Assembly (NCBI GenBank): GCA_964482435.1
Contig: CAYZXL010000010.1
Coordinates: 36,946-100,945 of the forward strand
DNA: 64,000 nucleotides
Direction of reading: 5' to 3'
From: an uncultured Verrucomicrobiota bacterium
GTDB taxonomy: Bacteria; Auribacterota; JABMQX01
Positions within the stretch are counted from its first letter, which is position 1, and every line of letters begins with the position of its first letter. Shown in pieces: positions 41,738-63,723 of the stretch. Made by a program: the position numbers and the translations under genes. A model generated the notes under the pieces. It saw nothing but the letters and a program-made list of their open reading frames with translations, had not been told where the DNA came from and made no database searches.

Positions 41738-41747
41738 AAAGGGAGCC

Positions 41748-42883: not shown

Positions 42884-43507
42884 TTGGCTATCACAGTTAG
42901 CAAAAGAGAGTTGCGAGCCGACCGAAACCGGAACAAGATTCTCAGCGCTGCCATGAAAGTGTTTTCCGGGAAGGGGTTCCACAAGGCGACCCTCGACGAG
43001 ATTTGCAGGCGAGCTGACCTGGGCAAGGGGACTATCTACCAGCATTTCAGCAACAAGAAAGACCTGTTTCTGGCGATTGTTGATTCGTTCGCGGCAGAGC
43101 TGGGAAAGCGCATTGAGGACGCCGTAAACGGGATTGAGGACGATTTCCTCCGGCTGCGAAAGGCGGTCTCGGCGTACATGGGCTTTCACGGCGGGCATCG
43201 CGCCTTTTACCGGCTCTTGATACACGAGGAAAGCTCCTTCACGAAGGAAATCCATGAGCGGTTTCGCACGAAGTACTTCTCCCATCTACAGATTCTCGAG
43301 GAAGTCCTCCGCAGGGGAATGAAGAACGGCAAAATGAAGAAAATGAATCCCAGAACCGCAACGTTCGCCCTCATTGGGATGTGCAATCTGACGATTTTCC
43401 GGTGGCTTTTATCAGAAAGGCCGTACCCGTTAGAGAGGGAGGCGGGCCCGATCCTGAAAATCTTTCTATGGGGGATTGCACAACAGCAAGAGGGTGGAGG
43501 GGCTTAG
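42884..43507 (+). CDS. TetR/AcrR family transcriptional regulator
   Basis: The N-terminal HTH has the signature ILSAAMKVFSGKGFHKATLDEICRRADLGKGTIYQHFSNKKDL. Confidence 0.85.
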   Translation: MAITVSKRELRADRNRNKILSAAMKVFSGKGFHKATLDEICRRADLGKGTIYQHFSNKKDLFLAIVDSFAAELGKRIEDAVNGIEDDFLRLRKAVSAYMGFHGGHRAFYRLLIHEESSFTKEIHERFRTKYFSHLQILEEVLRRGMKNGKMKKMNPRTATFALIGMCNLTIFRWLLSERPYPLEREAGPILKIFLWGIAQQQEGGGA

Positions 43508-43510
43508 AGG

Positions 43511-44857: not shown

Positions 44858-44876
44858 GCAACGAAAGGACACAGGA

Positions 44877-46094: not shown

Positions 46095-46176
46095 GGGGTG
46101 AGACAAGGCGGCTCTCGCGCGAATGCCTGAGCGCTCAGTGCCCGTCGTTACCCGAAAATCGGGAGTGTAGTTTGCC

Positions 46177-49100
46177 ATGAGCCTTCCTCGTTTTTGCGTC
46201 GGGCATCCCGTAACAACCCTGATGATTTTCTTTGGGGTTATCCTCATAAGCATCATCTCACTCCTTCGCCTTCCCGTGGACATGTTTCCGGAGATGACCA
46301 TCCCGTCCCTCAGTGTGATTACCCAGTATCCGGGGGCCAGTGCGGAGGACGTCGAGACGCAGGTGACGGAGCCGCTCGAAGACCGTCTCACGACGATCCC
46401 CGACCTCAAGCACATCCTCTCCACGTCCAAACAGGACCTATCTGTGATTACACTGAGCTTTGAGTGGGGAACGGACCTCGACACGCGAGCTAACGACGTC
46501 AGGGATGCCATCGGTTTCGCGGAGGTGGTCTTGCCCGACGACGCGGAAAAGCCCCTCGTCCTCAAATTTGACGTGTCCAACTTCCCCGTCATGGGTTACG
46601 GCATTACCGCCAGGGAAAGCTACCCTGACCTGAAGGAGACCGTCGAGAATGAGGTTGCTGACCCCCTCAAGCGGATTCCGGGTGTCGGCGCGGTCATGAT
46701 TCGAGGAGCACCGCGTCGTCAGGTCAACATTGACCTCGACCGCCAGCTCCTCGCGACTCATCATCTTACCCCTCAGGATGTCGTCCGTGCCATCTACAGC
46801 GAAAACCAGACCAATCCGGCCGGCAATCTCAAAGTTGGGGTCAAGGACTACTCCATTCGCGTGCCCGGTGAGTTCAAACAAGTCGAGCCGATGAAGCGAA
46901 TCGTCGTCTCCAACCAGGGAGGAAAGATTGTCCGCCTGGAGGATGTCGCTACTACGGTAGAGTATGCCTTCGCAGAGGAATTACAGCCTGTCCGAATTGA
47001 TGGTCAAAAGGGTCTTGTCCTCATGGTCCTCAGGCAATCTGGCGCCAATACGGTCAAGGTTGCCAGAGCGGTCCAGAAACAGGTAAAGGTCCTCGCCAAG
47101 CGCCTCCCGGAGGACGCCAAAGTCATTAGCGTCTGGGACGGTTCCGAAGACATTACTCGGATGATTAACGACCTCGTGACGACATTGTGGCAAGGGGGGC
47201 TGTTGACCGTCCTCGTTATCCTCATCTTTCTGCGGCAAGTCCGTGCGACGTTCATCATCGCGCTGTCCATTCCGTTTTCTCTGATCTCGACTCTGATTCT
47301 CACGTACGTCCTCGGCTACACGATTAACATGATCTCTCTCTTTGGCCTCGTCGTCGCCGTCGGAATGGTCGTGGACAACTCCATTGTCATCCTCGAGAAC
47401 ATCTCTCGGCATCGGGAGGAGGGAGAGAGCAAGAAAGAAGGCGCGCTCTACGGGGCGGGGGAGGTGGCACTGGCCGTCGCAGCGTCCACGTACACCACCG
47501 TCGTGGTTTTCCTCCCCCTGATCTTCGTCAAAGGGGTCATCAAGATTCTGTTTACACAGTTTGGAGTCGTTTTCTGCGCGACCATTCTCAGTTCCCTCTT
47601 CATCGCCGTTACTCTTACTCCGATGCTCTCCTCGAAGATACTGCCAGGGGCCTGGGACGAGACTCGGTCCAAGGGGCTTTTCCGCAGGCTTTATCAATGG
47701 TCCGGGCGGCTTCTCGACCCTATCTTTGTCGGGTACGATAAAGCGCTCGCATGGGCCTTGAACCATCGCAAGACCGTGATTGCCTTAGCGGTCGCCATCT
47801 TCGGCGGGAGCCTCTTCCTGATGCCATTCATCGGCAGCGAATTCACCCCCGATCAGGACCAGGGCTCTCTCCAGGGAACCCTTTACCTCCCTGTCGGAAC
47901 GAGGGTCGAGGAAACCGATCGGATCATGGCGGAAATCGAGGAGATTATGAAACGGGAGGTTCCCCCGGAAGAATTGTTGGTCACTTATGTTCGCTGCGGT
48001 CAGAGCGAGGAGGGGATATCAAGCATCTTTGGAGACGAAGGTCCCCACATTGGCGAATTTGGGGTGAAGCTCGTTCCGAAGACCCAGCGCAAAGAGGGCT
48101 TCAAGGAGATCGCCGAAAGGCTTCGAAAGAGAATTGCCCAGATTCCGGAGATAGAGAAATTCCGTGTTGAGACCCAGGACCCAATGGCCGGACTTCTACT
48201 CGGACAGGAGCGGCCCGTTACCGTCAACGTCTTCGGCAGAGACATGGAAAAGACCGATGCTTTCGCCGCGGAAGTCGAGAAAATCTTTCAGTCCGTGCGC
48301 GGAACAACCGACGTGGAAATCTCCCGGGTCAAAGGAAAGCCGGAGCTATGGGTGCAGATTGACCGCGACAAGGCTTCCTCGATGGGGTTGAATGTCTCAA
48401 CGATTTCTGACACGGTTCGTGCCGCGTTCTACGGCCGCGAGGCATCCAAATACAGAATCGGCGGCAACCAATACGACATCTTCGTTCGCCTCGACGACAA
48501 AAACCGCCTGACGCCCGACGATGTCCGGGAAATGGACATTCGCCTGCCGACCGGCGAGACCACGCAAGTCGCCAACCTCGCCGAGGTTGTCCCCCACCTC
48601 GGCCCCGTGACCATCGAACGAAAGGACCGCGACCGCATTGTTAACGTTGGCTCCGGCGTTGGCAAGCGGTCCATGGGCGAGATTGTGACGGATGTCAAGA
48701 AAAAAGTCGAGCGTCTTCCGCGAACGCCAGGGGTGGAGTGGCAGATGGCGGGTCAAGCAGAGGAGCAGAAGGAATCCTTCTTCTGGCTGAGGATTGCCAT
48801 TCTCATTGGCGTCATTCTCGTTTACATGGTCATGGCGGCTCAGTTCGAGTCGTTACTCCATCCTTTCGTAGTCATGTTCTCGGTTCCGTTCGCTTTCACG
48901 GGAGTCATCTGGGCTATGTTCCTCGGCGGATTTCATCTTAGTATCGTCGTTTTCATAGGGGTGCTGCTGCTCATCGGCATCGTCGTGAACAATGCTATCG
49001 TCCTGGTTGACTATACGAACATTCTCCGGGCGCGCGGCCTTGGAATCAAGGAGGCCGCCTTCCGGGCGGGAAGGACCCGGCTGCGGCCCGTTCTCATGAC

Positions 49101-49284
49101 CGCGATCACCACGATCGTAGGGCTGCTCCCGATGACTTTCGCCAAGGGACAAGGCTCGGAGTTCTGGAACCCGCTCGGCGCGACGATCCTCAGCGGGCTT
49201 TTGGTCTCGACGTTAGTTACGCTTATCGTCGTCCCAACCTTCTACACGATTTTTGAACGGAAGGGACGCTTCCAGAGGAGGTAA
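46177..49284 (+). CDS. RND family efflux permease (AcrB/CzcA superfamily)
   Basis: The 1035-aa protein has twelve TM helices and two large periplasmic loops, plus conserved RND motifs in TM4 and TM10. Confidence 0.85.
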   Translation: MSLPRFCVGHPVTTLMIFFGVILISIISLLRLPVDMFPEMTIPSLSVITQYPGASAEDVETQVTEPLEDRLTTIPDLKHILSTSKQDLSVITLSFEWGTDLDTRANDVRDAIGFAEVVLPDDAEKPLVLKFDVSNFPVMGYGITARESYPDLKETVENEVADPLKRIPGVGAVMIRGAPRRQVNIDLDRQLLATHHLTPQDVVRAIYSENQTNPAGNLKVGVKDYSIRVPGEFKQVEPMKRIVVSNQGGKIVRLEDVATTVEYAFAEELQPVRIDGQKGLVLMVLRQSGANTVKVARAVQKQVKVLAKRLPEDAKVISVWDGSEDITRMINDLVTTLWQGGLLTVLVILIFLRQVRATFIIALSIPFSLISTLILTYVLGYTINMISLFGLVVAVGMVVDNSIVILENISRHREEGESKKEGALYGAGEVALAVAASTYTTVVVFLPLIFVKGVIKILFTQFGVVFCATILSSLFIAVTLTPMLSSKILPGAWDETRSKGLFRRLYQWSGRLLDPIFVGYDKALAWALNHRKTVIALAVAIFGGSLFLMPFIGSEFTPDQDQGSLQGTLYLPVGTRVEETDRIMAEIEEIMKREVPPEELLVTYVRCGQSEEGISSIFGDEGPHIGEFGVKLVPKTQRKEGFKEIAERLRKRIAQIPEIEKFRVETQDPMAGLLLGQERPVTVNVFGRDMEKTDAFAAEVEKIFQSVRGTTDVEISRVKGKPELWVQIDRDKASSMGLNVSTISDTVRAAFYGREASKYRIGGNQYDIFVRLDDKNRLTPDDVREMDIRLPTGETTQVANLAEVVPHLGPVTIERKDRDRIVNVGSGVGKRSMGEIVTDVKKKVERLPRTPGVEWQMAGQAEEQKESFFWLRIAILIGVILVYMVMAAQFESLLHPFVVMFSVPFAFTGVIWAMFLGGFHLSIVVFIGVLLLIGIVVNNAIVLVDYTNILRARGLGIKEAAFRAGRTRLRPVLMTAITTIVGLLPMTFAKGQGSEFWNPLGATILSGLLVSTLVTLIVVPTFYTIFERKGRFQRR

Positions 49285-49764: not shown

Positions 49765-50748
49765 ATGAAGACACGCAAACTCGGTAGCTCGGACATCGAG
49801 GTTTCCGTCATTGGGCTTGGTTGCTGGGCCATGGGCGGATGGATGTGGGGCGGGACAGACGACGAGAAAGCTATCGCCGCCATTCACAAAGCTCTTGACA
49901 TCGGAATGACTCTGCTCGATACCGCGCCCGTGTACGGATTCGGCTATTCGGAAGAAATTGTCGGCAAGGCCATCCAGGGGCGTCGAAGCGAGGTCATTCT
50001 GGCGACGAAATGCGGGTTGGTCTGGGACCACCCCACAGGACAGCTTTCCATGGTTGATAAAGAAGGGCGAAAGATTTACAGAGACCTTACGAAGAAAAGT
50101 GTTCTACGGGAGGCCGAGGACAGTCTTCGCCGCCTGAAAACTGACTGGATTGATATTTACCAGTGCCATCGCCCCGACGACCTGACACCAGCCGAGGAGA
50201 CGATGGAAGCCCTGAACCTCCTCTTGAAGCAGGGAAAGATTCGAGCGATTGGCGTGAGCAACTTCTCCGTCGAGCAGATGGAGGATTTTCGACGATACGG
50301 CCCCGTCCACTCCGACCAGCCGAGGTACAGCATGCTCGACCGAGAAATCGAGCGGGAGATTCTCCCGTTCTGCCGAAAGAACAATATCGGAATCCTCGCT
50401 TACAGCCCGCTGGAGCAGGGCATCCTCACCGGCAAGGTCACGCCTGACCGCAAATTCCCGCCGAACGACTACAGAGGCGACAGGCCGTGGTTTCAGGAGA
50501 ACAATCTGAGGCGAGCGCTCGATTTCTTAGATAAGCTCAAGCCCATCGCCGCTAACCACGGTAAGAGCCTCGCGCAGCTCGGCATCAATTGGGTCATCTG
50601 CCAGGATGAGTTGATGGTGCCGCTCGTCGGCGCGCGAACGCCGGAGCAGGTCCTGGAAAACGCGGGCGCCGCCGATTGGCGGCTGAGGAACGATGAACTG
50701 AAGCTCATTGAACAGTACGTCGAGGACTTAGGGCCACCGGAGGAGTAG
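49765..50748 (+). CDS. cytoplasmic aldo/keto reductase
   Basis: The N-terminus MKTRKLGSSDIEVSVIGLGCWAMGG has no signal peptide. The AKR catalytic residues are in typical positions (D..Y..K..H). Confidence 0.8.
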   Translation: MKTRKLGSSDIEVSVIGLGCWAMGGWMWGGTDDEKAIAAIHKALDIGMTLLDTAPVYGFGYSEEIVGKAIQGRRSEVILATKCGLVWDHPTGQLSMVDKEGRKIYRDLTKKSVLREAEDSLRRLKTDWIDIYQCHRPDDLTPAEETMEALNLLLKQGKIRAIGVSNFSVEQMEDFRRYGPVHSDQPRYSMLDREIEREILPFCRKNNIGILAYSPLEQGILTGKVTPDRKFPPNDYRGDRPWFQENNLRRALDFLDKLKPIAANHGKSLAQLGINWVICQDELMVPLVGARTPEQVLENAGAADWRLRNDELKLIEQYVEDLGPPEE

Positions 50749-51816: not shown

Positions 51817-52632
51817 TCAGGAACGCCGAGCGGGAGTTGTTGGCGGGGTTTGGGCTTTCTGGGCGGGGGCGCGACCGGCAGCCCAGCCAATCGCGTTGGA
51901 GAGGAGCTTTCGGTAATTCGCGTCCTTGAAAGCGCTCGCGCCGTGACCAAACTGAATGTACACAACGGGCGCCTTCCCGCAGAGTTGCGTCCAGGCGATG
52001 ACCTTTTCGCTAAGCGGATGCTCCACCGTGAGGAGAGGCTTGACTTCGGGGCGAACGGTAAACTTATTGTAAACCTCGTCAACAATTTCAAACTCTGAAA
52101 TCCTCAGCCCTTGCGCGATCGGGTGGCTCTTGTCGGCAACCTGCACCTTGAGTTTCTCGTCGTGCTTATAGCCCGACGTCGGGTGCTTCACGCCGTCTTC
52201 TTCCCGGGCGGCTGTATAGAATTTCCCTCCGATGATTTTCTGGAAATCCGGCCAGTCCTGGTACGAGCCGAGGCAATGGTGCAGACCCACCAACCCTTTT
52301 CCGGAGCTGAGGTACATGACAAGTTTCTGCTTCTGGGCATCCGTGATTTTCTGCACCATGTCGTACAGGACAATCACGTCGTACTTCGCCAGGTCTCTAT
52401 CGTACGCTTCGCTGGTCTCCTTTTGCTCGGCGGTCTCGACCACAATTCCGTCGAGAGCCTTGAACATCGCAAAGAACGGCTCCTGCTCGAAATCATGCCC
52501 GCCAGTCACGACGAGAACCTTGATTTTCTCCGCGGGAGCGCTCGGCGCCGCGCATTGAACCGCAGCTGCAAGAATTGCGGCAAGCCCGAATACACAGATT
52601 AACGTCACCAACCCAACCCAATTTCGCTTCAC
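51817..52632 (-). CDS. secreted ThuA-like (trehalose-utilisation ThuA family) protein
   Basis: The signal peptide is followed by ThuA hallmarks KVLVVTGGHDFE, LAKYDVIVLYD, GKGLVGLHH, GGKF and HPIAQGL. Confidence 0.7.
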   Translation of the reverse strand: MKRNWVGLVTLICVFGLAAILAAAVQCAAPSAPAEKIKVLVVTGGHDFEQEPFFAMFKALDGIVVETAEQKETSEAYDRDLAKYDVIVLYDMVQKITDAQKQKLVMYLSSGKGLVGLHHCLGSYQDWPDFQKIIGGKFYTAAREEDGVKHPTSGYKHDEKLKVQVADKSHPIAQGLRISEFEIVDEVYNKFTVRPEVKPLLTVEHPLSEKVIAWTQLCGKAPVVYIQFGHGASAFKDANYRKLLSNAIGWAAGRAPAQKAQTPPTTPARRS

Positions 52633-52851
52633 TTTTTCTCCTCCTTACGCTTCGTGCGACAGGGGCCGTTGCTCGCTGTTCTACCGGGAACGCGCGCAAC
52701 TTTCCTTTGATTTTTTTTAGGATAACCCGTTTATCCTCTCGTTTCAAACATTTTGTTTCCCGGGGCGTAATGCCTCATCTGTGACGGGTTACGCTCGACG
52801 AAGGCGCTCGCTCGACGTTCTTGCCGCTTCGCAGGATGGGAGAATGGGCGT

Positions 52852-55575
52852 TCAGTCCTGGCAGACGCGGTAGAAGCGGCATTTGACGGCGGCAGCGGGA
52901 GGGGAGGTTGGATTATTTTTCTCGTCGGGAGAGTCGAGCCATTGGATGATGCTGCCGTCTCCGAGGAAAGCCGGGCCGCAGGGTTTCCAGTCGGTGGTTT
53001 CATTGAGACCGTCGTCGGTGTACTCAATCTGGTAGCGGACACCTTGAATCGTTGGTCCGAAGGCGACGGCGATTGAGGAGGTGCTGACGGTGATGGTGAG
53101 TTGCAGTGGCGGAAACGGCTCCTCCTCGCGGAGCAGAAGCGTGAGGTCATCCCAGGCGGCGTTCGCGGGAGAGCTGAACACGTCGCGGGCGAGCATCCAG
53201 AACCGGACGGATTTTGTGCCAGCAGGGACGCGATTGCTGGAGGACAATTTCATCCACTCGCCGATTACCCCGGAGTAAAGTTGCCGTCGTTCGAGAACGG
53301 TGTTGCTGGCATCGAGAAATTCAATTGCTATCAAAGGGACAACGGACTCCGTCTGGCCTGTTCGGATGACATGGCCTCCCCAATCGGCGACAATCTTTTT
53401 TTGCGGCGAATCAATCGCTTCTGAAAAAGCCGAAACGTCCACGTCCTGATAAGCTCCGAGGAGGTAGGTCTCGTTCACCAGGTTGTTTGTTTCGCGGTCG
53501 AATCTCCCCGAGGTCTGGTCTGCCCAGAAAGCCCACTTCCCCTGGACGCTCCAGCCGTCAGCGACGGCAATGAACAGGTCGTTGTCGAAGGAGTAGCGGT
53601 TGGCGGGGTCGGGTGGGAAAGTAGTGCTGGCGTTGGTCCAGTGGCAGAGGGATTGTTCTTCGGCATCGGAGTTGAGGAGAAGGTTGCGTGTTTGATCGCC
53701 CGCAGCGCCGGCGACGGTTTCGGACGGCAGCCCTTCGAGATCGGCGTCCACTGCTGTTACGTAATACGAACAACTGGTCCCTTCGACCAGGTTGAGGTCG
53801 AGGTAACGTGGTTGTGGCACCCGAGAAGGGGTGATTTTGACGAAGGGTGCATCGCCTACCTTCCTGTAAATCAAATAGCCGAGGACATCGGCTTCGGGAT
53901 TGGGTTCCCAGGCGAGGGCGATTCCTCCGAGGGTCGGCTCGGCGGAAAGACCGAAGACCTTTTTCGGGGGGATGCCGGCAGGGGCGGTGGTCTGGACTTC
54001 GGGCGACGGGTCGCTCTCTACGGGACCATATCCAGGAGCGAAGGAGCGGACCATGTAGGTGTACGTCTTGCCTTCTGCGGTGGATTCGTCAGTCCAAGAG
54101 GTCGCGGCGACGTCGGCGACTTTCTCGAAAGGCTCGGAGCCGGTTCGGCGGTAGATGTTGTAGCCGGCTGGCAAGACTCCTCCGGACGGGGGATCCCAGG
54201 AGAGCGCGATGCTTTGCTCGCCGGGAGAAACGGAAGCTGAGAGATTCGACGGCGGGTCCGGCTTGGGGACGAAATTCCATTGATATACGACAACCTCCCC
54301 GGACTTCAGAGAGATGTAGAAGCGGTTGCGGTAGCCCTTGATTGACTGAATTTGCTCTCCGTCTCCGATGCTCACGCTAAAGAGCACCTGCGGTTCGCTC
54401 GTCTTATCGGCGAGGTCGAGCACGAGAAGCTCGTCTCCCCCTACCTCGGCAGTGACGAGGTGCGTCTCATCGTGGGTCAAAACGGACGGAAGGAGCGGAT
54501 TGGACGAGATGCGGCTTCCCGGCTCATCGCCGTTCCCGTTCCAGTTGATGGGCGAGCCGAGGAACTCAGGAGCCGCACCGTCGGTGGGCATGTCGGCATT
54601 CCAGAGTAAATAGGAGCCGTCAGCGGCCACGACTTGCCGGATGCGAACAAACCAGTGGTCCGCTGGATGCATGGACGCGACCCGCTCGATCAACCACTTC
54701 CCATCGCCGGTTATGATGTCGGGCGAGACTCGCGAACGCCAGTCGCCCGAGCAGCGCGACCAGTACCGAAACGCCTCAATGGGGTCTCGCGAAAAATCCA
54801 GCATCGCTTCCGCTCCGTCCTGCCCTCCGCACCAGAGCAAATCGCGGCTCGGGTCGTAAACCTGCCCGTAAATCGTCGAGAACCCCCCGATGCCTTCCTT
54901 CACGACGGACATCTTCCGGGTGACGGAGTTGATCGAAAGCAAGTAGATTCCCTCGCCGAAAAAGACTTTGTGGCCGCCAGAGGGGTCATCGGCGTGCCCG
55001 CCGGTTCTCATGGCAGCGGCGATCATTGAGCCGCCCTTGACGAAAATGGGAGGGGATGTGGTCAAGGGATTCTCAAATTGAGCACCCGGAAATTGAAGAT
55101 TCGGGGGATAGGCAGAGTCGAGCAATTGGAATTGGTCACCGCTGACGTCAATCAGGAATATCTTTGTTCCGCAGCCGCCTCCGACGACAACTCTCTCAAA
55201 ACACGGGTCGAAAGAGATTCCGAAGGCGCCATCCTCGCCGTAAGGCATCCCTTCAAATTCCTGCTGGGCGAGGGAGCGGATTTGGGAGGGGTCTGTGACG
55301 TCGAGGATGTCGAGGCAGGCTGCCCCGCCAGGGGAGGACTCGCTCACAACGTAGAGGCGAGTGCCGTCGGCGTTGAGGGCGAGATTGTACGCACCTCCGG
55401 GCCCGGGGTCAAACTCGCCGCAGAAATCGAAACGCTCGACATTCAATCCTCCCGACGGAGTGTCAGATATGCCGGAGCTGGTGCGGGAGCGCGATTCTCC
55501 GGCAACGCGCCAAGCGCACGGGAACACGAGGAGACAACAAAGACACACAGCAAAACTGGATAGCCGTGGACGCAT
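52852..55575 (-). CDS. large secreted protein with a beta-propeller-like N-terminal region, two fibronectin type III domains and a C-terminal domain of unknown function
   Basis: The start at 55575 is followed by signal peptide MRPRLSSFAVCLCCLLVFPCAWRVAG. The two FN3 units are ...PPSNLSASVSPGEQSIALSWDPP...YTYMV... and ...PPKKVFGLSAEPTLGGIALAWEP...YYVTAVD... Confidence 0.5.
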   Translation of the reverse strand: MRPRLSSFAVCLCCLLVFPCAWRVAGESRSRTSSGISDTPSGGLNVERFDFCGEFDPGPGGAYNLALNADGTRLYVVSESSPGGAACLDILDVTDPSQIRSLAQQEFEGMPYGEDGAFGISFDPCFERVVVGGGCGTKIFLIDVSGDQFQLLDSAYPPNLQFPGAQFENPLTTSPPIFVKGGSMIAAAMRTGGHADDPSGGHKVFFGEGIYLLSINSVTRKMSVVKEGIGGFSTIYGQVYDPSRDLLWCGGQDGAEAMLDFSRDPIEAFRYWSRCSGDWRSRVSPDIITGDGKWLIERVASMHPADHWFVRIRQVVAADGSYLLWNADMPTDGAAPEFLGSPINWNGNGDEPGSRISSNPLLPSVLTHDETHLVTAEVGGDELLVLDLADKTSEPQVLFSVSIGDGEQIQSIKGYRNRFYISLKSGEVVVYQWNFVPKPDPPSNLSASVSPGEQSIALSWDPPSGGVLPAGYNIYRRTGSEPFEKVADVAATSWTDESTAEGKTYTYMVRSFAPGYGPVESDPSPEVQTTAPAGIPPKKVFGLSAEPTLGGIALAWEPNPEADVLGYLIYRKVGDAPFVKITPSRVPQPRYLDLNLVEGTSCSYYVTAVDADLEGLPSETVAGAAGDQTRNLLLNSDAEEQSLCHWTNASTTFPPDPANRYSFDNDLFIAVADGWSVQGKWAFWADQTSGRFDRETNNLVNETYLLGAYQDVDVSAFSEAIDSPQKKIVADWGGHVIRTGQTESVVPLIAIEFLDASNTVLERRQLYSGVIGEWMKLSSSNRVPAGTKSVRFWMLARDVFSSPANAAWDDLTLLLREEEPFPPLQLTITVSTSSIAVAFGPTIQGVRYQIEYTDDGLNETTDWKPCGPAFLGDGSIIQWLDSPDEKNNPTSPPAAAVKCRFYRVCQD

Positions 55576-55973
55576 GACACCCCCCCGGTGAGACTTCCAA
55601 GCCGCGACATTTCTCGAGTTATCGTATAGCAAATCGGAAAAAGCAAGTCAACAAACCCCGAAAGTTTTCAGGTAGTGCGTTAGTCCTCCGCGGCTATGGT
55701 CGTGTCGCCCGCGAGGAACAAAGCCTCTACCTCCGTAGTGCCTGTCCAATGCCGCTCGTCAAATCACGACAAGGCGATAATTCACCCCGGGCGCGCCCCC
55801 GAAATGCAGTCACGGCCCTTCAGCGTGAGTCATTGGTTCACGAAGAACCGACATCGGGGCGTACAGACGCTCATTGCCCTCACGGCCGCCACGCAATCCA
55901 GACAAAGCGCCGTTGGCACCTTATGAACCGAATTGCCGACGGGAAGGCTCAGCCCTGTCGGAGTCGCGCCTCC

Positions 55974-57296
55974 TCACAACGGCCGTATCTGGATGTTGCG
56001 GTAGATGGCTTTTGCCTTTATACCTTCCGCTTGGCCGCCGCCGTGAACCTGGACGGCGATGCCACCTTTTTCGGGGATGCGAACCTCCTTGTCCTCGTAA
56101 TCAATCATGTGGACGCCGTTCATAAAGACGGTGATTTTGGGCGGCTGGCCGGAAATCTTGATGCGGAAAATGTTCCAGTCGTCCTTCTTCCACGCGGCAG
56201 GATATTGCTCTGACCGCGCTCCGAAGCCGCCAATCCCCTCGCCGTAGATTCCGCCGACGTTGCCCCCTTCGTGATAATCCACCATGACCTGATAGGCTTT
56301 CCCGGTCTCTGTCGAGCGAAGGAATATTCCGCTGTCAATTCCCCACTCCGGTTTCGCCTCGATGACTAACTCGAAATCACCATACTCCTTGTCGGTGATG
56401 AGAATGCCGCCCTGACGAGGCGGATTCTGCTGGCCGACGATGGTACCGTTCTCGACCACCCATTTCCCGCCAGTGCCGTGTCCTGTGGTGCGGCTGACAT
56501 GCCAACCGTTGAGGGTTTTTCCGTCGAAAATCGGGGTGAAGCCCGCAACGTAATCGGGAACGGGCTTGCCCGCGGCCCAGAGCGTTGCACGGATGAGGAA
56601 AGTCTTGAAGATGTCCTGCTGGCAGGCTTTGGGGTCGTGCCCAAATCCCATGTAGAAGACTCGTCCCTTCCCAGACGATTTCGTCCAGGCGATGGGGAGG
56701 TCCTTCCCCTCGTGCGCGGCGGTCGCGAGGATGTGAATCTCAGGGTCGTCCTGCTGGAGGATGTACTGCTCGTCCGTGATGTTGAAGTCAATCAGCCCTC
56801 TCGTTAGAGGGTTTTCCTTGTCCACAACCTTCACGGCGAATTCCCGGTAAGCCGGGTGCGTGAGGAAATGCCCGCCGACGAACTTCCGATATTCTTCGTC
56901 CTCGCGGAACGAATCGCCGGCCGAATGGAAGCCAACGTAGCCCTTGCCGCTGGCGACGAAATCGAAAAGCCCTTTCTTCTGTTCAGGAGTAATCGTTCCG
57001 ACGGTGTAGTAAAAGACAATCACGTCGTAGGGGTCGAGCTTGGGGGAGATGAGAGCGTTGAGGTCCTCCTCGATTTTTGTAACCTCGAACTGCCCGAACT
57101 CCTTCAGCGTCTTCTCGACCTCATTCCCGATCCCCTTGTAGTCGTGGATGGTCCCACCGGCGAAGACGAGGACTTTCGTCTTCGAACTCGGCGCTTGCGC
57201 AGCGGTTGGCGTCAAAAAGTCCACACAGAAAGCCACAGTCGTTACGGTCAGCAAAAGTGCTCCCAAACAAGCGCACGTGAGAAAACGGTTCTTCAT
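55974..57296 (-). CDS. secreted ThuA-like domain fused to a DUF1080 (3-keto-disaccharide hydrolase-like) domain
   Basis: The N-terminal ThuA half has KVLVFAGGTIHDY, DPYDVIVFYY and GKGYVGFHSA. The C-terminal half has the DUF1080 motifs FDGKTLNGWH, YGDFELVIE and IAVQVHGG. Confidence 0.7.
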   Translation of the reverse strand: MKNRFLTCACLGALLLTVTTVAFCVDFLTPTAAQAPSSKTKVLVFAGGTIHDYKGIGNEVEKTLKEFGQFEVTKIEEDLNALISPKLDPYDVIVFYYTVGTITPEQKKGLFDFVASGKGYVGFHSAGDSFREDEEYRKFVGGHFLTHPAYREFAVKVVDKENPLTRGLIDFNITDEQYILQQDDPEIHILATAAHEGKDLPIAWTKSSGKGRVFYMGFGHDPKACQQDIFKTFLIRATLWAAGKPVPDYVAGFTPIFDGKTLNGWHVSRTTGHGTGGKWVVENGTIVGQQNPPRQGGILITDKEYGDFELVIEAKPEWGIDSGIFLRSTETGKAYQVMVDYHEGGNVGGIYGEGIGGFGARSEQYPAAWKKDDWNIFRIKISGQPPKITVFMNGVHMIDYEDKEVRIPEKGGIAVQVHGGGQAEGIKAKAIYRNIQIRPL

Positions 57297-57458
57297 GGTT
57301 GCCTCCTTGTTTTGGCTGCCTATCGCATCATCCTTCGCGGAAACGACTTGAAGGAACGCGGCTGCGTTCCCTCAGTTCTGCGAGCCATTCCGTCGAGGGC
57401 AAATAACAGTGATTCCGCGATTGCTCCGGCGTTGCCCGCCACTCCCTGGTGGAAAACC

Positions 57459-58424
57459 TCATGCCTTTTGCTCGGCGATAACCTTGTTGAGGTGCTTGAG
57501 ACTCCTCTCAGCCTGCTCGACCGTCCCGCACTCGACGGAAAGGACGCCGTTAAAGCCCGCTTTCTTCAGAATCTTGACGATGCGCGTCCAGTCAATGACC
57601 CCGTCGCCGCAGGCGCAGCCGACGGCGGTCCCGGTCACCTTCCCTCTCTCGTCCTTGCTCTGCTGTAGCTCGATGTCCTTAGCATGCATGTGGAATGTGC
57701 GGCCGGCAATTGCCTCCAGCATCTCGTAAGGGTCGCTCACTCCGCCGAGGTAGGCGTTCCCGGAATCGAAATTGAACCCGACGTTGGGGGATGGCACGAG
57801 GTTGGCGATTTTGATTATCTTATCGGTGTAAACGCTGAATTTCTGATGCGGCTCAATCCCGATTTTGACATTGTGTCGCTCGGCAACCGGAACGATGCAC
57901 TTCAGGGTGTAGTGCATAATCTTGAAGGCTGTGTCCTCATCCATCCATTCGGGAATCATCCCCTCGTCGGTGTTGCAGACGGGCGCGCCAAGTTCCGCCG
58001 CGAAGCGAATCGCCTGCTTGATATACTCTACGGAGATTTCCGGTCTTGCTAAAGGACTGTGGCAGGACAAGCCGCTCGCCTGAATGCGATGTTTCTGGAG
58101 AATGTCTCGAATCTCAAGGGGGTCTTCGCTCATCGAGATGGTGTGGTAATAGCCCGCCTCGCTCATAAGCTCGCGGCCCCAGTGCACCATCGGCTCGCAG
58201 AACTTGTATCCGATCTCGGCGGCCTTTGCGACTCCCCACTTGAAAGGCTTCTCAGCCCTTCGTATGAACTCCATATTGATGCCCGGTTTCATGCCCATGG
58301 CAACCCCTCCTTTCTCAGAATCCTCTGCGTTCGCGGTCTCGGTACGGGCGGCGAGAAGCGCCGCCGCGCCGATCAAAGAACTGTCTTTCAGGAATTCTCT
58401 TCTGGTGATGTCCTTTTGTGCCAT
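57459..58424 (-). CDS. TAT-exported sugar phosphate isomerase/epimerase (xylose isomerase-like TIM barrel) family protein
   Basis: The start at 58424 has a GAGGAGG RBS and a twin-arginine signal MAQKDITRREFLKDSSLIGAAALLAA. A TIM-barrel metal-binding His/Asp/Glu pattern follows (EPH, HAKD). Confidence 0.6.
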   Translation of the reverse strand: MAQKDITRREFLKDSSLIGAAALLAARTETANAEDSEKGGVAMGMKPGINMEFIRRAEKPFKWGVAKAAEIGYKFCEPMVHWGRELMSEAGYYHTISMSEDPLEIRDILQKHRIQASGLSCHSPLARPEISVEYIKQAIRFAAELGAPVCNTDEGMIPEWMDEDTAFKIMHYTLKCIVPVAERHNVKIGIEPHQKFSVYTDKIIKIANLVPSPNVGFNFDSGNAYLGGVSDPYEMLEAIAGRTFHMHAKDIELQQSKDERGKVTGTAVGCACGDGVIDWTRIVKILKKAGFNGVLSVECGTVEQAERSLKHLNKVIAEQKA

Positions 58425-58863: not shown

Positions 58864-59598
58864 GTGTTTAGCTTCATAGTGCGGTGTTTTCGTTGGCCTT
58901 TTTTCGTGGCCTGGGTCGCGCTGGTCCCGATGATGACGGAGTTGACATGTATAGGGGCAGAGGTCAAAGCCGAGAACAGAACCGCAGTTGAGCATGAACA
59001 GAAGCGCGGCGCCTGGGTGAAGACGAGCACCCTGGGCACAAAGAAATACGCTCCGAGCAAGAAGGAATCCGAGTTCTTTGACCGGCTGGCCTCGGATGAA
59101 AATGTCACAGGCGGTATTTTCGGAGACTATTCAATTACCGGGAAGGTCGGGAAGTACATTGGATGGTATGGAATCGTCCGACGGATCAAAGAGTCAAAGG
59201 AGAAGGGCACGACGGAGCTCCTTGTCGAAATGAAGTATTTCGACGGACTGACCGACCTGCACATCATGGCGGTGTCGTTCAACGGGGCGGGCGACTTCGA
59301 GGCGATTCTCTTGGGGACGGGGCACGACATCAAGCCCCTGAGCTTCGTCAAGGTTTACGGGCAAGTGGAAAAAGAAGTGGAGTCGGTGCCTTATGTGTCA
59401 GCGTGTTATGTCCGTGAATGGGATTGGGGGACGTTCACGTTCCTGATGGCGTATGGCGAGCAAAAGGGGAACACTGCGTGGCAAAAACTGAACAAGGTTC
59501 CCCTGGATGACATATACGACGCATGGCCCAACGGGGCGTATTATGAGAAGCGGCTCGGCGAGCGGCCGAAAGCGCCGCCCCCGGAGCCCTCGAAATAA
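58864..59598 (+). CDS. hypothetical exported protein
   Basis: The 244-aa protein has a hydrophobic N-terminus and no recognisable motif. It lies between the TIM-barrel gene and the first TAT-AKR. Confidence 0.4.
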   Translation: MFSFIVRCFRWPFFVAWVALVPMMTELTCIGAEVKAENRTAVEHEQKRGAWVKTSTLGTKKYAPSKKESEFFDRLASDENVTGGIFGDYSITGKVGKYIGWYGIVRRIKESKEKGTTELLVEMKYFDGLTDLHIMAVSFNGAGDFEAILLGTGHDIKPLSFVKVYGQVEKEVESVPYVSACYVREWDWGTFTFLMAYGEQKGNTAWQKLNKVPLDDIYDAWPNGAYYEKRLGERPKAPPPEPSK

Positions 59599-59658: not shown

Positions 59659-60804
59659 ATGAGCATGACGAAGGACACAGTGAGCAGAAGGCAATTCCTG
59701 AAGGACAGTTCGATGATCGGAGCGGCGATGGTTCTTGCGGCAGCCGGCGCTAAGCCGAGCGACGCGAAGGAACCGAAAGTGGACACGTCGAAAATCGTCA
59801 ACTACAACCCGAAGATGGGATACCGGCGCCTCGGAAAAACGAATTTGATGCTTTCGGAAGTGAGCCTCGGCGGGCACTGGAAAAATCGCGGCGGCGGACG
59901 ATACTGGGACAGGTTCGACCAGGATGAGTGCCCGGAGGACGTCGCAAGAAACCGGTCTGACATCGTCAGCAAGTGCATCGAGTGCGGCATCAACTATCTC
60001 GACATCACAACACGCGCGGAGTGCATCGCTTACGGGATGGCCCTGAGAGGGCGAAGAGACAAAATGATTGTCGGGGCGGACGACCATGTCCTGGGCCCGC
60101 GAAATCCTGCCAACCGCACGGTTGAGAAGCTTATTCTCGACGTCGAGGAATGCCTGAAAGCGTTCAAGACGGACTATTTTGACATCTGGCGAGTACAGGC
60201 GCAGATGAATCCCCCTCTTAACACTGACGCGGAAGTCGAGAACATGGTCGAAGCCTTCGAGCAACTCCACAAGCAGGGGAAAGCGAAGTGGTTTGGCGTT
60301 TCGTCCCACACGCGCTCATGGCATCAGCACATCATCGAAAAATATCCGCAAATCTCGATGATTATTTTCCCGTACACCGCCCAGTCAAAGGCCATTGACG
60401 GCAAGGAAACGATTGTCGAGCAGGGCGCCGACGAAGCCGACCCGGCGGTCAGGAGCATCTTCGAGGCGGTGAAGAAGCACGACGTCGGGGTCTGCACGAT
60501 CAAGCCGTTTGCGGGCGGCTCAGTCTTCAGCCCGCAGAAGTTCCCGGCTCCGGAGCAAGGGTCGGAGGAAGAGCACAAGCTAGCGCGATTGACTTTGCAG
60601 TACATCACCGCCAACGACGCAATCACCGCGACGCTGCCCGGCATGACGACGATGCGCGAAGTCGAGAACAACGTTCGGGCATCCTACGAGCGCGGCAAGG
60701 GCGTTTCCTGGGAGGATGTTCAGTGGCTCAAGCGAAGGACGGATGCGGCGTGGGCGAACCTTCCCGAGGAGTACGCATGGCTGCGCGAGTGGGAGTGGGT
60801 CTGA
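59659..60804 (+). CDS. TAT-exported (periplasmic) aldo/keto reductase family protein
   Basis: The twin-arginine signal is VSRRQFLKDSSMIGAAMVLAAAGA. The AKR core is paralogous to the 62015-63106 gene, with shared motifs LGKT.LM.S.V.LGGHWK and F.GFSSH.R. Confidence 0.7.
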   Translation: MSMTKDTVSRRQFLKDSSMIGAAMVLAAAGAKPSDAKEPKVDTSKIVNYNPKMGYRRLGKTNLMLSEVSLGGHWKNRGGGRYWDRFDQDECPEDVARNRSDIVSKCIECGINYLDITTRAECIAYGMALRGRRDKMIVGADDHVLGPRNPANRTVEKLILDVEECLKAFKTDYFDIWRVQAQMNPPLNTDAEVENMVEAFEQLHKQGKAKWFGVSSHTRSWHQHIIEKYPQISMIIFPYTAQSKAIDGKETIVEQGADEADPAVRSIFEAVKKHDVGVCTIKPFAGGSVFSPQKFPAPEQGSEEEHKLARLTLQYITANDAITATLPGMTTMREVENNVRASYERGKGVSWEDVQWLKRRTDAAWANLPEEYAWLREWEWV

Positions 60805-60832
60805 GGCGCTCTCCGAACGGGAATGACGCGAA

Positions 60833-61888
60833 ATGAAATGCGTGCGCCTGACTCGGGTCCCAGTTCCAGCAGCGGCGATCGTGCTCGCGGCGGCGTTCCT
60901 CGTGGCTGGGAGCGAAGATGACCAGAGGAGAAAGGAGGGCGAAGACGCGGTCCTGAAAAGCAATTCCGCGTGCATGGTGTGCCACATAGATTTTGCGGAT
61001 GAAGAACTGACCGTCCAGCATCGCAAGGCGCGGGTGACGTGCGCCGCGTGCCACGGGCCGTGCCTCGAGCACATGGACGACGAGATGGCTGCGACGAGGC
61101 CGGACCGGCTCTTCGGCCGTGCGGAAGTCAACAAGATGTGCGGCGAATGCCACGGCGAGCACAAAAACAAAGACGCAGTGGACGCGTTTCTGAAGGAATG
61201 GTACGGCAGGCGACGACCCAACGGCCAGCTCATCACGAAAGACGCTGTCTGCACCGATTGCCATGGCAGGCACGTCCGGCTTCTCGCGCCCATGCCGCAG
61301 GCTAAGCCGGAGGCTGAGAACTGGAGGCAGCTTTTCAACGGCAAAGACCTCACCGGCTGGAAGCCTGTCGGCGACGCAAAGTGGACGGTTGAGAACGGCG
61401 TTTTGGTCGGTCAGCAGAACAACGGCCAGCACGGCGACATTCTCACGGAGGAAAGCTACGACGATTTCGAGCTTGTGGTGACGTTCAAGGTTCGCCGGCC
61501 TGCCAACAGCGGCATTTGGTTTCGCGCGCTCGACAAGCTTCCCGGTTATCAGATGGACATAGTCAGTCCCGGCAACTCGTTTCACGAAAATGCCACCGGA
61601 AGTCTTCTGTCCTGGGGAGAAGTAGGCAAAGTGTCCGACGCAGCGGCTGATTGCCTGAGCAGGGTCACCGACGACAGCATCCTCAACCGCGACGGATGGA
61701 ACACCGCTGACATCATCGCCGTCGGCGACCACATCAAGGTCACCCTGAACGCGGCCGTAGCAGCCGATTTGCATGACGCCAGGCACCGCAGGGGCAAAAT
61801 TGGCTTCCAGGTTCATCCCGGAGAACGGTTCAAAGACATGAAAATCATGGTCAGGGAGGCGAAGGTTCGGACGCTGGGCGGCTCGTGA
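60833..61888 (+). CDS. tetraheme cytochrome c domain fused to a DUF1080 (3-keto-disaccharide hydrolase-like) domain, exported
   Basis: The signal peptide is followed by four CxxCH motifs (CMVCH, CAACH, CGECH, CTDCH) within about 120 aa. DUF1080 motifs follow: FNGKDLTGWK, YDDFELVVTF, NSGIWFR and IGFQVH. Confidence 0.75.
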   Translation: MKCVRLTRVPVPAAAIVLAAAFLVAGSEDDQRRKEGEDAVLKSNSACMVCHIDFADEELTVQHRKARVTCAACHGPCLEHMDDEMAATRPDRLFGRAEVNKMCGECHGEHKNKDAVDAFLKEWYGRRRPNGQLITKDAVCTDCHGRHVRLLAPMPQAKPEAENWRQLFNGKDLTGWKPVGDAKWTVENGVLVGQQNNGQHGDILTEESYDDFELVVTFKVRRPANSGIWFRALDKLPGYQMDIVSPGNSFHENATGSLLSWGEVGKVSDAAADCLSRVTDDSILNRDGWNTADIIAVGDHIKVTLNAAVAADLHDARHRRGKIGFQVHPGERFKDMKIMVREAKVRTLGGS

Positions 61889-62014
61889 GGCGCGTGAGAA
61901 ACGCGCCGCTGGAGGACTCTTCGAGTCATGGGCAGTCAGATATTGTCGCCAGATGTTCATACATGGTAAGCTATAGCTCAAGTGGTTTGACAATCAAACA
62001 GGGAGGTTTTCGGT

Positions 62015-63106
62015 ATGGCTGAAAAGAAAATAACAAGACGAGAGTTTGTTCGAGACGGCGCGATGGCGGCGGTCGGCATTGCGGCGGGCTTAGCAACCGG
62101 AGCACCCGCCCTCGGCGCCAAAGAGACGAAGATTCTCAACTACAACGAGAACATGGAGTATCGCGCTCTCGGAAAGACCGGGCTGATGGCTTCCGCGGTC
62201 TGCCTCGGCGGACACTGGAAGCGCATCAACCTCATGGCGCCCAGCGCTTTCAAGGGCGATGACTGGCTTGGTGCGAATCTCAACGACTCTGACTTCGTGA
62301 AGAATCGCGGCGAGGTTGTCAGCCGCTGCATCGAGCTTGGCATGAACTATATTGACTCGTGCACCATCGAGGAGGTGAAGACTTACAGCAGAGCCTTGAA
62401 AGGCCGTCGCGAGAAGATGTACCTCGGCTGCTCGTGGTATCAAAAGGAGATGCGAAACGATAATTTCCGCACGAAAGAGGCGCTTCTCAAGACGCTGGAC
62501 GAGGGCTTGAAGGATGCCGGTCTCGATTACGTGGACCTCTGGCGAATCACCATGCACGAGCAGAGCGGCAATCACACAAAGGCCGAGGTCGAGCAAATGA
62601 TGAAGGCGCTCGAGGCGGCCAAGAAGCAGGGAAAGGCGCGCTTCACCGGCTTCTCCTCGCACGATCGCCCGCACATCAAATGGATGATTGAGACCTACCC
62701 GGAGATCGTTGACGTGGTTGTGACGCCCTACACCGCCAACACCAAAGAGCTCCCCAAAGATAGCCTCTTCGAGACGGTGAGGAAGCACAAGGTCGGCGTA
62801 TTCGGAATCAAGCCCTTTGCCAGCAATTCGCTCTTCAAGGGCGATAGCTCGCCGACGAGCTCGACGGCGGAAGAAGATGACAAGCGGGCCCGGTGGGCCA
62901 TTCGCTGCATCCTCTCGAATGATGCAGTCACCGCGCCCATTCCGGGGTTGATCAACATTCACCAGGTGGACAACGTCACAAAAGCCGTCGGAGAGCGACG
63001 CCAGCTTGACGCCGCAGAACTTAGGCAGTTCGACGAGGCCGTCGCCGAGATGTGGGCGAAGCTGCCGGAAGAATATCAGTGGCTGCACGACTGGAAGTAC
63101 GTGTAA
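62015..63106 (+). CDS. TAT-exported (periplasmic) aldo/keto reductase family protein
   Basis: The twin-arginine signal is ITRREFVRDGAMAAVGIAAGLATGAPALGA. The protein is a paralog of the 59659-60804 gene. Confidence 0.7.
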   Translation: MAEKKITRREFVRDGAMAAVGIAAGLATGAPALGAKETKILNYNENMEYRALGKTGLMASAVCLGGHWKRINLMAPSAFKGDDWLGANLNDSDFVKNRGEVVSRCIELGMNYIDSCTIEEVKTYSRALKGRREKMYLGCSWYQKEMRNDNFRTKEALLKTLDEGLKDAGLDYVDLWRITMHEQSGNHTKAEVEQMMKALEAAKKQGKARFTGFSSHDRPHIKWMIETYPEIVDVVVTPYTANTKELPKDSLFETVRKHKVGVFGIKPFASNSLFKGDSSPTSSTAEEDDKRARWAIRCILSNDAVTAPIPGLINIHQVDNVTKAVGERRQLDAAELRQFDEAVAEMWAKLPEEYQWLHDWKYV

Positions 63107-63222
63107 GCGAGGATTGAGGTTGGCGCATAGCGCTTCACGCGGGTGGCGCGGGCAGATGTCCCGCCCATCCGCGTGATTCTATCTGATTCAAGACGGTCGC
63201 GGTTGTCTGCAAAGGAAATCGC

Positions 63223-63723
63223 ATGAGGAATGGCGCGCTCGCAGTACTCTCGGCATCGGTGGTCCTGTCGCTCTTCTCATGCGTCCACAATCCGTCTCTC
63301 GACGAGAAACGTGCAGGGGCGCTCGCCACTCCCGGCGAAAAGCATGATGCTCCAGCACCGCCCAGGCAAACTACCGCCGACAATAGTTGGTGCCATGTGT
63401 GCCACATCAATTACGCCGAGGAGGAGCTTGCCGTAACACATGCGCGCGCCAACGTCGGCTGCGCGACATGCCACGGTGAGTCTTATGCCCACCGAGGCGA
63501 CGAGGCAAACGTTACCCCACCCGACATCATGTACCCCAAGGAGAAGATTAACCCATCGTGCTTAAAGTGCCACGCTGCCGAGAAGCTCAGCGACGTTCAC
63601 AAACCGTTCCTCGCGGGCACCGCCGAGGAAAAGTATTGCACCGATTGCCACGGCGATCACCGCCTCGCCTATCGCACGCAGCGCTGGGACAAGGCGACCG
63701 GCAAGCGCCTGAAGCAAGAATAG
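63223..63723 (+). CDS. tetraheme cytochrome c lipoprotein
   Basis: The lipobox is LFSCV. Four CxxCH motifs (CHVCH, CATCH, CLKCH, CTDCH) are spaced as in the cytochrome domain of the 60833 protein. Confidence 0.75.
   Translation: MRNGALAVLSASVVLSLFSCVHNPSLDEKRAGALATPGEKHDAPAPPRQTTADNSWCHVCHINYAEEELAVTHARANVGCATCHGESYAHRGDEANVTPPDIMYPKEKINPSCLKCHAAEKLSDVHKPFLAGTAEEKYCTDCHGDHRLAYRTQRWDKATGKRLKQE

Follow-up and report, generated by a model that had tools for sequence, protein, structure and literature searches.

Conserved pairs of genes for Tat-signal-bearing aldo/keto reductase-like proteins and tetraheme cytochromes c with probable links to keto-sugar processing in an uncultured Verrucomicrobiota bacterium

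Two consecutive gene pairs lie between positions 59659 and 63723 of a 64,000-nucleotide stretch of DNA from an uncultured Verrucomicrobiota bacterium (assembly GCA_964482435.1, contig CAYZXL010000010.1; the whole stretch is referred to here as the window), each composed of a gene for an aldo/keto reductase (AKR)-like protein followed by a gene for a tetraheme cytochrome c. All four open reading frames (ORFs) are in the ORF list of the window and on the forward strand. The first pair consists of AKR-A (subtype A; 59659–60804, 381 residues), identified by matches to PF00248 and TIGR01409, and a tetraheme cytochrome fused to a DUF1080 domain (cytochrome 1; 60833–61888, 351 residues), recognised by its heme motifs and a match to PF06439, which starts 28 nucleotides downstream of AKR-A. 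The second consists of AKR-B (subtype B; 62015–63106, 363 residues), which matches PF00248 and is 39% identical to AKR-A over its full length (E 9e-82), and a stand-alone tetraheme cytochrome (cytochrome 2; 63223–63723, 166 residues), recognised by four CxxCH motifs and Pfam matches. A preliminary description of the sequence had proposed this arrangement, and the coordinates, strand and motifs all agree with it; it had also called both cytochromes small, which is apt for cytochrome 2 but not for the longer fusion protein. A promoter and terminator scan found no forward-strand terminator between the four genes, although the number of sites predicted is at the level of shuffled sequence and is uninformative.

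Both AKR-like proteins match PF00248 above its cut-off of 24 bits (52 bits for AKR-A and 77 bits for AKR-B), but weakly in comparison with the 256 bits of a canonical 327-residue AKR that is encoded elsewhere in the window (49765–50748, forward strand) and has no N-terminal twin-arginine motif. An AlphaFold (AF2) model of AKR-A is a TIM barrel with a predicted local distance difference test score (pLDDT) of 81 and a predicted template modelling score (pTM) of 0.82, and the top Protein Data Bank (PDB) matches to this model in Foldseek are all AKRs, namely AKR11C1, AKR14A1 and L-galactose dehydrogenase; these matches are distant, with TM-scores of 0.5–0.7 and 16–23% sequence identity. By fold and by sequence, both proteins are members of the AKR superfamily. 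Searches with A-type and B-type queries each gave more than 4,000 matches, and those with names are annotated as 'aldo/keto reductase' only.

These are nonetheless not ordinary AKRs, as only the Asp of the catalytic Asp-Tyr-Lys-His tetrad is retained (D115 in AKR-A and D114 in AKR-B). The Tyr position is occupied by A120 and the invariant E121 in subtype A and by E119/E120 in subtype B, the Lys position by D141 and S140 respectively, and the His position by Q180 and T179, with H181 nearby in the latter. These assignments are consistent between HMMER, used to align the single proteins as well as a family profile with solved AKRs (1ynp, 7smi and 7ezi), a MAFFT alignment with the canonical AKR of the window, which has the full tetrad intact and served as an internal control, and motif counts in about 240 homologues. 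Residues that are invariant in both subtypes include His73 (in a GGHW motif), Glu121, Tyr125, Arg148, Arg178, His217 and Lys282, and both also have a conserved aromatic C-terminal tail (W..LP..Y.WL..W..V), which in AKR-A reads LPEEYAWLREWEWV. The loss of the tetrad suggests that the substrate-side chemistry is altered, and the usual NAD(P)H-dependent reduction of carbonyls should not be taken for granted from these sequences.

On the cofactor side, the β5 (G-x-S-S), β7 (K-P-F-x-G) and β8/α8 (P-G-x5-(E/Q)-V-(E/D)-N) motifs, which make the contacts to NAD(P) in AKRs, show little or no variation and correspond to those of AKR11C1, AKR14A1 and L-galactose dehydrogenase, although loops 250–265 and 283–300 of the model are of low confidence. 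The β8/α8 motif has its closest likeness in L-galactose dehydrogenase, an NAD-dependent sugar oxidiser. These motifs suggest that a nucleotide cofactor, NAD(P) as judged from them, is probably still bound by the AKR-like proteins, and its presence is probably the reason why they would be exported in a folded state by means of twin-arginine translocation (Tat).

AKR-A begins with a Tat signal spanning approximately residues 1–36 and containing the motif SRRQFLK, which matches TIGR01409 with 26–31 bits against a cut-off of 16.7; the N-terminus of AKR-B contains TRREFVR and is borderline, its 16.2 bits falling half a bit below that cut-off. The paired arginines are present in 112 of 117 A-type and in 118 of 119 B-type homologues, and Arg10, Arg11 and Phe13 are invariant in a family alignment. 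Because the RR motif is conserved across the homologues, these N-termini are genuine and the start codons are not further downstream; the preliminary description had suggested twin-arginine signals on both proteins, and had pointed to downstream starts as the way in which this could prove wrong. Both proteins thus have the motif of Tat substrates and are predicted to be exported. The cytochromes have N-terminal Sec or lipoprotein signals, fitting heme attachment in the periplasm.

At its N-terminus cytochrome 1 has a signal or anchor helix, which is followed by four CxxCH motifs within residues ~40–150 (C47-H51, C70-H74, C103-H107 and C140-H144; heme domain approximately 60950–61282), and cytochrome 2, the partner of subtype B, has a lipoprotein-type signal (LFSC) and no DUF1080 domain. 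The two heme domains align with all four CxxCH motifs in register (34% identity, E 5e-23), such that the one-to-one correspondence of hemes noted previously is borne out. Cytochrome 2 exceeds the cut-offs of three Pfam families (Cytochrome_C7, Paired_CXXCH_1 and Cytochrome_C554); cytochrome 1 is below the cut-off of every curated Pfam heme family and gives weak matches only. The heme domain has its four closely spaced motifs within about 110 residues, includes the signature ...HM.DEM.MT.PD.LFGR.EV..., and has enough conserved His and Met residues to provide distal ligands. All four motifs are kept in dozens of orthologues, and the third is CX4CH in many of these: in one locus (L021, 8324–9412) and in most Planctomycetota orthologues it is CX4CH (CSNPSCH) followed by an insertion, whereas it is CxxCH in the window. 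An AF2 model of the heme domain, built without hemes, is poor (pLDDT 40–80). By their motifs and signals both proteins are multiheme c-type cytochromes, with covalent heme attachment predicted.

A profile search with the heme domain among 1.84 billion representative sequences recovered 736 clusters at 50% identity, most of which are either stand-alone proteins of 150–250 residues or fusions of 310–465 residues. The tetraheme domain constitutes a family of its own, and it is found almost only beside AKR-like genes or fused to domains from sugar pathways. In a Pfam scan of ten long tetraheme-domain representatives, the heme domain is joined to DUF1080, which may come before or after it, to a xylose-isomerase-like TIM barrel, to ThuA or to a GH123 catalytic domain, and the gene upstream of the xylose-isomerase-like fusion encodes a Tat AKR-B-type protein. 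The AKR-like protein and the tetraheme domain are therefore the invariant couple, and the variable attachment always belongs to a carbohydrate-pathway family.

The DUF1080 domain of cytochrome 1 (PF06439; residues 164–338, approximately nucleotides 61322–61846) is a β-sandwich that scores 116 bits against a cut-off of 26.8. Its sequence match in the PDB is 4jqt (E 2.5e-20), and Foldseek matches include BT3469, AL2 (8v31), BT2 (8tda/3osd), 8rr2 and 9fbe. By sequence and fold it is a member of the 3-keto-disaccharide hydrolase family; a lyase or hydratase activity is putative, since the domain has 17–27% identity to the characterised enzymes and shares its fold with non-catalytic CBM66 modules. 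DUF1080 and xylose-isomerase-like proteins act as 3-keto-glycoside lyases and hydratases in a periplasmic pathway that begins with a Tat-exported nicotinoprotein dehydrogenase, the xylose-isomerase-like AL1 and BT1 proteins being 3-keto-β-glucoside lyases (bioRxiv 10.1101/2024.03.25.586180). By analogy, the fusion to DUF1080, which the preliminary description had overlooked, is the main clue that the chemistry of the module may involve sugars.

The conservation of the pair was examined in a scan of one genome per GTDB species, which gave 453 relatives and from which the neighbourhoods of the best 80 loci (84 AKR-like ORFs, all in metagenome-assembled genomes) were analysed. These loci span the Verrucomicrobiota (the nearest, at 85% and 80% identity), Pirellulales, Phycisphaerae, Sedimentisphaerales and Armatimonadota. 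The next gene on the same strand encodes both tetraheme and DUF1080 domains after 60 of the 84 AKR-like ORFs, a tetraheme domain only after eight, and a DUF1080 domain only after four, such that 72 of the 84 are followed by one or both. The remaining 12 are followed by neither; three of these are at a contig end with no room for a further gene, and others may be artefacts of ORF calling. A heme/DUF1080 cluster is present in 74 of the 80 loci, and in the reverse direction, an AKR-like gene lies directly upstream of the cytochrome–DUF1080 gene in three of three distant loci. The adjacency in related genomes on which the preliminary description had staked its interpretation is thus strongly conserved, and in distant genomes too. 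In one locus (L013) the pair is isolated among unrelated genes, and across the 80 loci we found no further partner family that the pair conserves among xylose-isomerase-like, ThuA, GFO (near the pair in 6 of 80 loci), sulfatase and the 244-residue ORF described below.

Several loci are unusual. Contigs labelled as Nitrospiraceae (L019) and Candidatus Nealsonbacteria (L091) contain typical pairs at 53–54% identity, and are probably mis-binned rather than true occurrences in those lineages. In a Planctomycetaceae metagenome-assembled genome (L020, 8141–11335) an AKR-like gene is followed by a 1064-residue ORF that has three CxxCH motifs and no match to either the tetraheme domain or DUF1080, and which may be an alternative partner. 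A BRC1 contig (L101) has tandem AKR-B fragments at its end and was dropped as evidence for a cytochrome.

The B-type AKRs are themselves well conserved, with 65–77% identity across Brocadiia, BRC1 and Phycisphaerae, and the genes behind them encode tetraheme cytochromes that are ~165 residues long and have no DUF1080 domain (L100, L102, L015 and L071). In 11 of 11 pairs the A-type AKR is accompanied by a Cyt1-type heme domain, and the B-type AKR by a Cyt2-type heme domain. This complete matching of subtypes argues that the two pairs in the window are old lineages in which AKR-like protein and cytochrome have diverged together. The suggestion in the preliminary description that they arose by tandem duplication is therefore misleading if taken to mean a recent event, and the identities between the paralogues (39% and 34%) are those of two ancient and separately conserved subtypes. 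Taken overall, that earlier interpretation is partly supported.

The locus extends just beyond the window. A third Tat AKR-like gene (AKR-C) is located about 315 nucleotides past cytochrome 2, as seen in contig L002 (5463–5732, corresponding to approximately 64038 onward in window numbering), whose AKR-A gene is identical to that of the window. The same order of AKR-A, cytochrome–DUF1080, AKR-B, cytochrome and AKR-C is found in L015, the closest of the 80 loci (85% identity). In L015, AKR-C (7197–8252) has no cytochrome of its own behind it.

Upstream of the module and on the reverse strand is a run of exported sugar-pathway-like genes (51817–58424). These encode ThuA (51817–52632), a 926-residue fn3-containing protein (52852–55632), a 440-residue ThuA–DUF1080 fusion with a signal peptide (55974–57296; PF06283, 151 bits, and PF06439, 114 bits), and a xylose-isomerase-like barrel with a Tat signal (57459–58424; PF01261, 115 bits, and TIGR01409), which starts with MAQKDITRREFLK and is called as a 321-residue gene in contig L001. 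Among the 80 loci this 3-keto-pathway-like arrangement recurs only in L015. Directly upstream of AKR-A is a forward-strand ORF of 244 residues with a hydrophobic N-terminus (58864–59598), which gave no match in Pfam or NCBIfam. It occurs in contigs L001–L003, in which AKR-A is identical to that of the window, and as a partial ORF at the same position in L004, but is absent from all 80 related loci, L015 included.

Two other small ORFs, an Arg-rich one with DRR repeats (~120 residues) and a very acidic one (~115 residues), are found upstream of the AKR-like gene in L021 (2750–3593), L047, L028 and about 25 other loci from Phycisphaerae, Sedimentisphaerales and Pirellulales, often beside glycogen-metabolism genes. 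They were considered as parts of the module and rejected; their distance from the AKR-like gene varies from 0.4 to 5 kb, and they probably reflect lineage synteny.

Genes for System II cytochrome c biogenesis are located 18 kb upstream of the module (38552–42740, forward strand), which suggests that the organism is able to make c-type cytochromes. They encode a ResB-like protein (38552–41737; PF05140, 75 bits) and CcsA (41748–42740; PF01578, 129 bits). The ResB-like protein, which is immediately followed by CcsA, is unusually long (1061 residues) and has C-terminal PD40/WD40-like β-propeller repeats. Between these and the canonical AKR is a complete efflux operon (42884–49284, forward strand) encoding a TetR regulator, an outer-membrane factor, a membrane-fusion protein and an AcrB-type RND pump. 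The long ORFs opposite the four genes of the module are shadow ORFs of a GC-rich region and have no family support.

The interpretation that we favour, and to us one only a little short of an even chance, is that the two-gene module is a periplasmic sugar or glycoside dehydrogenase:cytochrome c unit, to which a keto-sugar lyase is attached in subtype A. The AKR-fold barrel would leave the cytoplasm through the Tat pathway in its folded form, its cofactor presumably already bound, and would keep NAD(P) as a prosthetic group in the manner of glucose-fructose oxidoreductase (GFOR) and other nicotinoproteins. The substrate site would have been rebuilt, the Asp-Tyr-Lys-His tetrad giving way to a set made up of His73, Asp115, Glu121, Asp141/Ser, Arg148 and Arg178, and the AKR-like subunit would act in the periplasm on a sugar or glycoside, oxidising one of its hydroxyls. 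Electrons would then leave by way of the four hemes of the partner to the respiratory chain or to another acceptor. The cytochrome, exported by Sec, would in subtype B be a free protein with a lipid anchor and otherwise be joined to a domain that processes keto-sugars, and in subtype A the keto-glycoside would be cleaved or hydrated by the tethered DUF1080 domain. The whole could be viewed as a flavin-free functional analogue of a glucoside 3-dehydrogenase together with a 3-keto-glycoside lyase. The physical complex, the identity of the cofactor, the class of substrate and the direction of electron flow are those parts of the proposal that we infer.

Several considerations weigh against this proposal, and its main weakness is chemical, because the module has no evident site for a flavin, Fe-S center or quinone that could split a hydride into one-electron steps and because the usual AKR acid/base residues are absent. 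As the hallmark residues of hydride chemistry in AKRs (Tyr, Lys and His) are gone, dehydrogenase activity is not assured, and the binding of a cofactor is itself argued from motifs. The direct path of electrons from nicotinamide to heme is likewise a conjecture, and we know of no precedent for direct transfer from nicotinamide to a c-type heme. No fusion of an AKR-like protein to a cytochrome was found either among the AKR-like matches listed, which carried PF00248 only, or among the ten long tetraheme representatives, and about 10–15% of the AKR-like genes have no tetraheme or DUF1080 neighbour. Furthermore, as the best 80 loci are all from metagenome-assembled genomes and many of the lineages are anaerobes, the electron sink proposed, and even the direction of flow, are tentative.

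A stronger form of the dehydrogenase proposal is that the AKR-fold enzyme is the catalytic subunit of a new class of respiratory cytochrome c-linked dehydrogenases, with the product in subtype A channelled to the tethered lyase. Electrons would pass straight to the tetraheme cytochrome from the bound nicotinamide, or from a hitherto unrecognised metal site formed by the new His/Asp/Glu residues, with no mediating flavin, pyrroloquinoline quinone or Fe-S center. We advance this more specific scheme only tentatively and regard it as doubtful.

Synteny and co-divergence fit either direction of electron flow, and the cytochrome could instead feed electrons to the AKR-like subunit, which would reduce a periplasmic substrate such as a keto-sugar generated by lyases of the DUF1080 or xylose-isomerase type, or else an aldehyde or something resembling a quinone, and so provide an electron sink for anaerobic bacteria of the Planctomycetes–Verrucomicrobia–Chlamydiae (PVC) group. 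Many carriers are Sedimentisphaerales, Phycisphaerae and Brocadiia of anoxic sediments, AKRs are typically reductases, and the fused lyase domains belong to families that make keto-sugars, products which are reduced at a later step of the known pathway. However, the Tyr that serves as acid catalyst in carbonyl reduction is missing, and transfer of electrons from hemes of the bis-His type to NAD(P)+ is thermodynamically uphill. We consider flow in this direction unlikely.

Of similarly low probability in our view is that the AKR-like protein has no redox role at all, and is a TIM barrel that depends on a metal and acts on keto-sugars as a lyase, isomerase or epimerase, with the cytochrome serving an unlinked dehydrogenase. 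The replacement of Tyr, Lys and His by the invariant Glu121, Asp141/Ser and Gln/Thr, with the invariant His73 and His217 near, gives a new His/Asp/Glu cluster that could act like the His/Asp/His and Glu of xylose-isomerase-like 3-keto-glucoside lyases; the characterised TIM-barrel lyase works with a metal and a Glu (bioRxiv 10.1101/2024.03.25.586180), and the window itself contains a non-redox TIM barrel with a Tat signal. A barrel of this kind would nevertheless leave unexplained why the invariant and co-diverging partner is the cytochrome and not the lyase domain, and subtype B has the cytochrome but no sugar-processing domain. In addition, no dehydrogenase is conserved near the pair in the 80 loci, and the motifs on the cofactor side of the AKR barrel are kept.

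There is precedent for exported dehydrogenases that need no cytochrome, as both GFOR and the Bacteroides BT2158/AL3 enzymes combine Tat export and a tightly bound cofactor with recycling by a second substrate. The AKR-like protein could by the same token be a self-sufficient ping-pong nicotinoprotein, and the cytochrome independent and merely co-regulated. We think this very unlikely, as conservation disfavours it: the adjacency is found across phyla and in isolated two-gene modules, AKR-like protein and cytochrome diverge together by subtype, and the heme-domain family occurs almost only beside AKR-like genes. That the module is an artefact, whether of ORFs arising by chance, of wrongly assigned starts or of genes that are neighbours by coincidence, as might be feared in a high-GC region crowded with long opposite-strand shadow ORFs, is already refuted by the hundreds to thousands of homologues found in each search, by the conserved Tat and heme motifs and gene order, and by the confident folds, and has next to no probability left.

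The dehydrogenase:cytochrome c proposal is of interest as the oxidation of glycosides to 3-keto-sugars in the periplasm has only recently been seen as an alternative to classical glycosidases, and how exported dehydrogenases with a fixed cofactor are re-oxidised is unclear for most bacteria. The module couples an AKR-fold protein that carries a Tat signal with a tetraheme cytochrome of its own, and gene fusions tie that cytochrome in turn to three families of keto-sugar-pathway proteins. If correct, the proposal would give the respiratory dehydrogenases a further catalytic scaffold, a new one, and would open a new way for glycans to feed electron transport. In its stronger form it would describe a new class of sugar-oxidising respiratory enzymes common in uncultured PVC and Armatimonadota bacteria, and would offer a possible answer to how Tat-exported nicotinoproteins are re-oxidised in the periplasm. 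Planctomycetota, Verrucomicrobiota, Armatimonadota and kindred uncultured lineages dominant in the turnover of polysaccharides in sediments supply most of the matches, and current annotation as 'aldo/keto reductase' or 'DUF1080 protein' only makes both the cytochrome and the pairing invisible. Even if the mechanism proves wrong, loss of the tetrad in a very conserved exported subfamily hints at unknown chemistry.

The preliminary description was not aware of an account of such a pair, and we too found no description of an exported AKR or of an AKR–cytochrome pair in the literature searched, in which subscription papers were covered incompletely. The AKR-like proteins resemble canonical AKRs (AKR11C1, 1ynp; AKR14A1/YghZ, 3n6q/4aub; plant L-galactose dehydrogenase, 7smi/7ezi) in their (α/β)8 barrel and match to PF00248, in the Asp on β2, and in the cofactor-side motifs of β5, β7 and β8, but differ from these in having a Tat signal, a long β1-α1 insertion and the aromatic C-terminal tail. 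The cytochromes resemble small multiheme cytochromes (c3, c7, NrfB-like and c554) in the close spacing of their CxxCH/CX4CH motifs and in their weak Pfam matches. In Zymomonas GFOR and other nicotinoproteins, including the mycofactocin-dependent dehydrogenases (mycofactocin/MftG), the NAD(P) is non-exchangeable and the enzyme needs another substrate or else an external acceptor dedicated to it; the cofactor of GFOR leaves the cytoplasm together with the folded enzyme via Tat. The module differs from these in its fold and in the acceptor proposed, and to our knowledge no multiheme cytochrome has been described as the acceptor for a nicotinoprotein.

Two systems for making and processing keto-sugars invite closer comparison. 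The periplasmic BT2156-2160/AL1-4 system of Bacteroides and Alistipes comprises a Tat-exported oxidoreductase with a tightly held nicotinamide, a DUF1080 lyase/hydratase and a xylose-isomerase-like lyase (bioRxiv 10.1101/2024.03.25.586180), and the same accessory families are found here fused to the tetraheme domain. Its oxidoreductase is however a Rossmann-fold member of the Gfo/Idh/MocA family that is recycled by a second sugar with no cytochrome, whereas the module has an AKR-like protein with a cytochrome and has no match to PF01408. The LacABC and ThuAB 3-dehydrogenases are cytochrome c-dependent (PMC8121099), and the glucoside 3-dehydrogenase LacABC consists of a catalytic subunit of the FAD-dependent GMC type, a cytochrome c subunit and a small subunit with a Tat signal, with genes of this type adjoining DUF1080 genes, as in Caulobacter (PMC9007349). 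Periplasmic sugar oxidation coupled to a c-type cytochrome, the linkage to DUF1080 and the use of Tat are features that the module would share with LacABC (PMC9007349, PMC8121099), the sugar oxidation being on the module's side a prediction. The likeness is functional only, since the catalytic subunit of the module has an AKR fold and the four genes encode no GMC/FAD domain, and the cytochrome is from a distinct tetraheme family with DUF1080 fused to it rather than encoded separately. The module is thus best viewed as a candidate periplasmic dehydrogenase with its own cytochrome c, linked to keto-sugar processing and a member of neither known system, and its underlying chemistry stands a realistic chance of being new.

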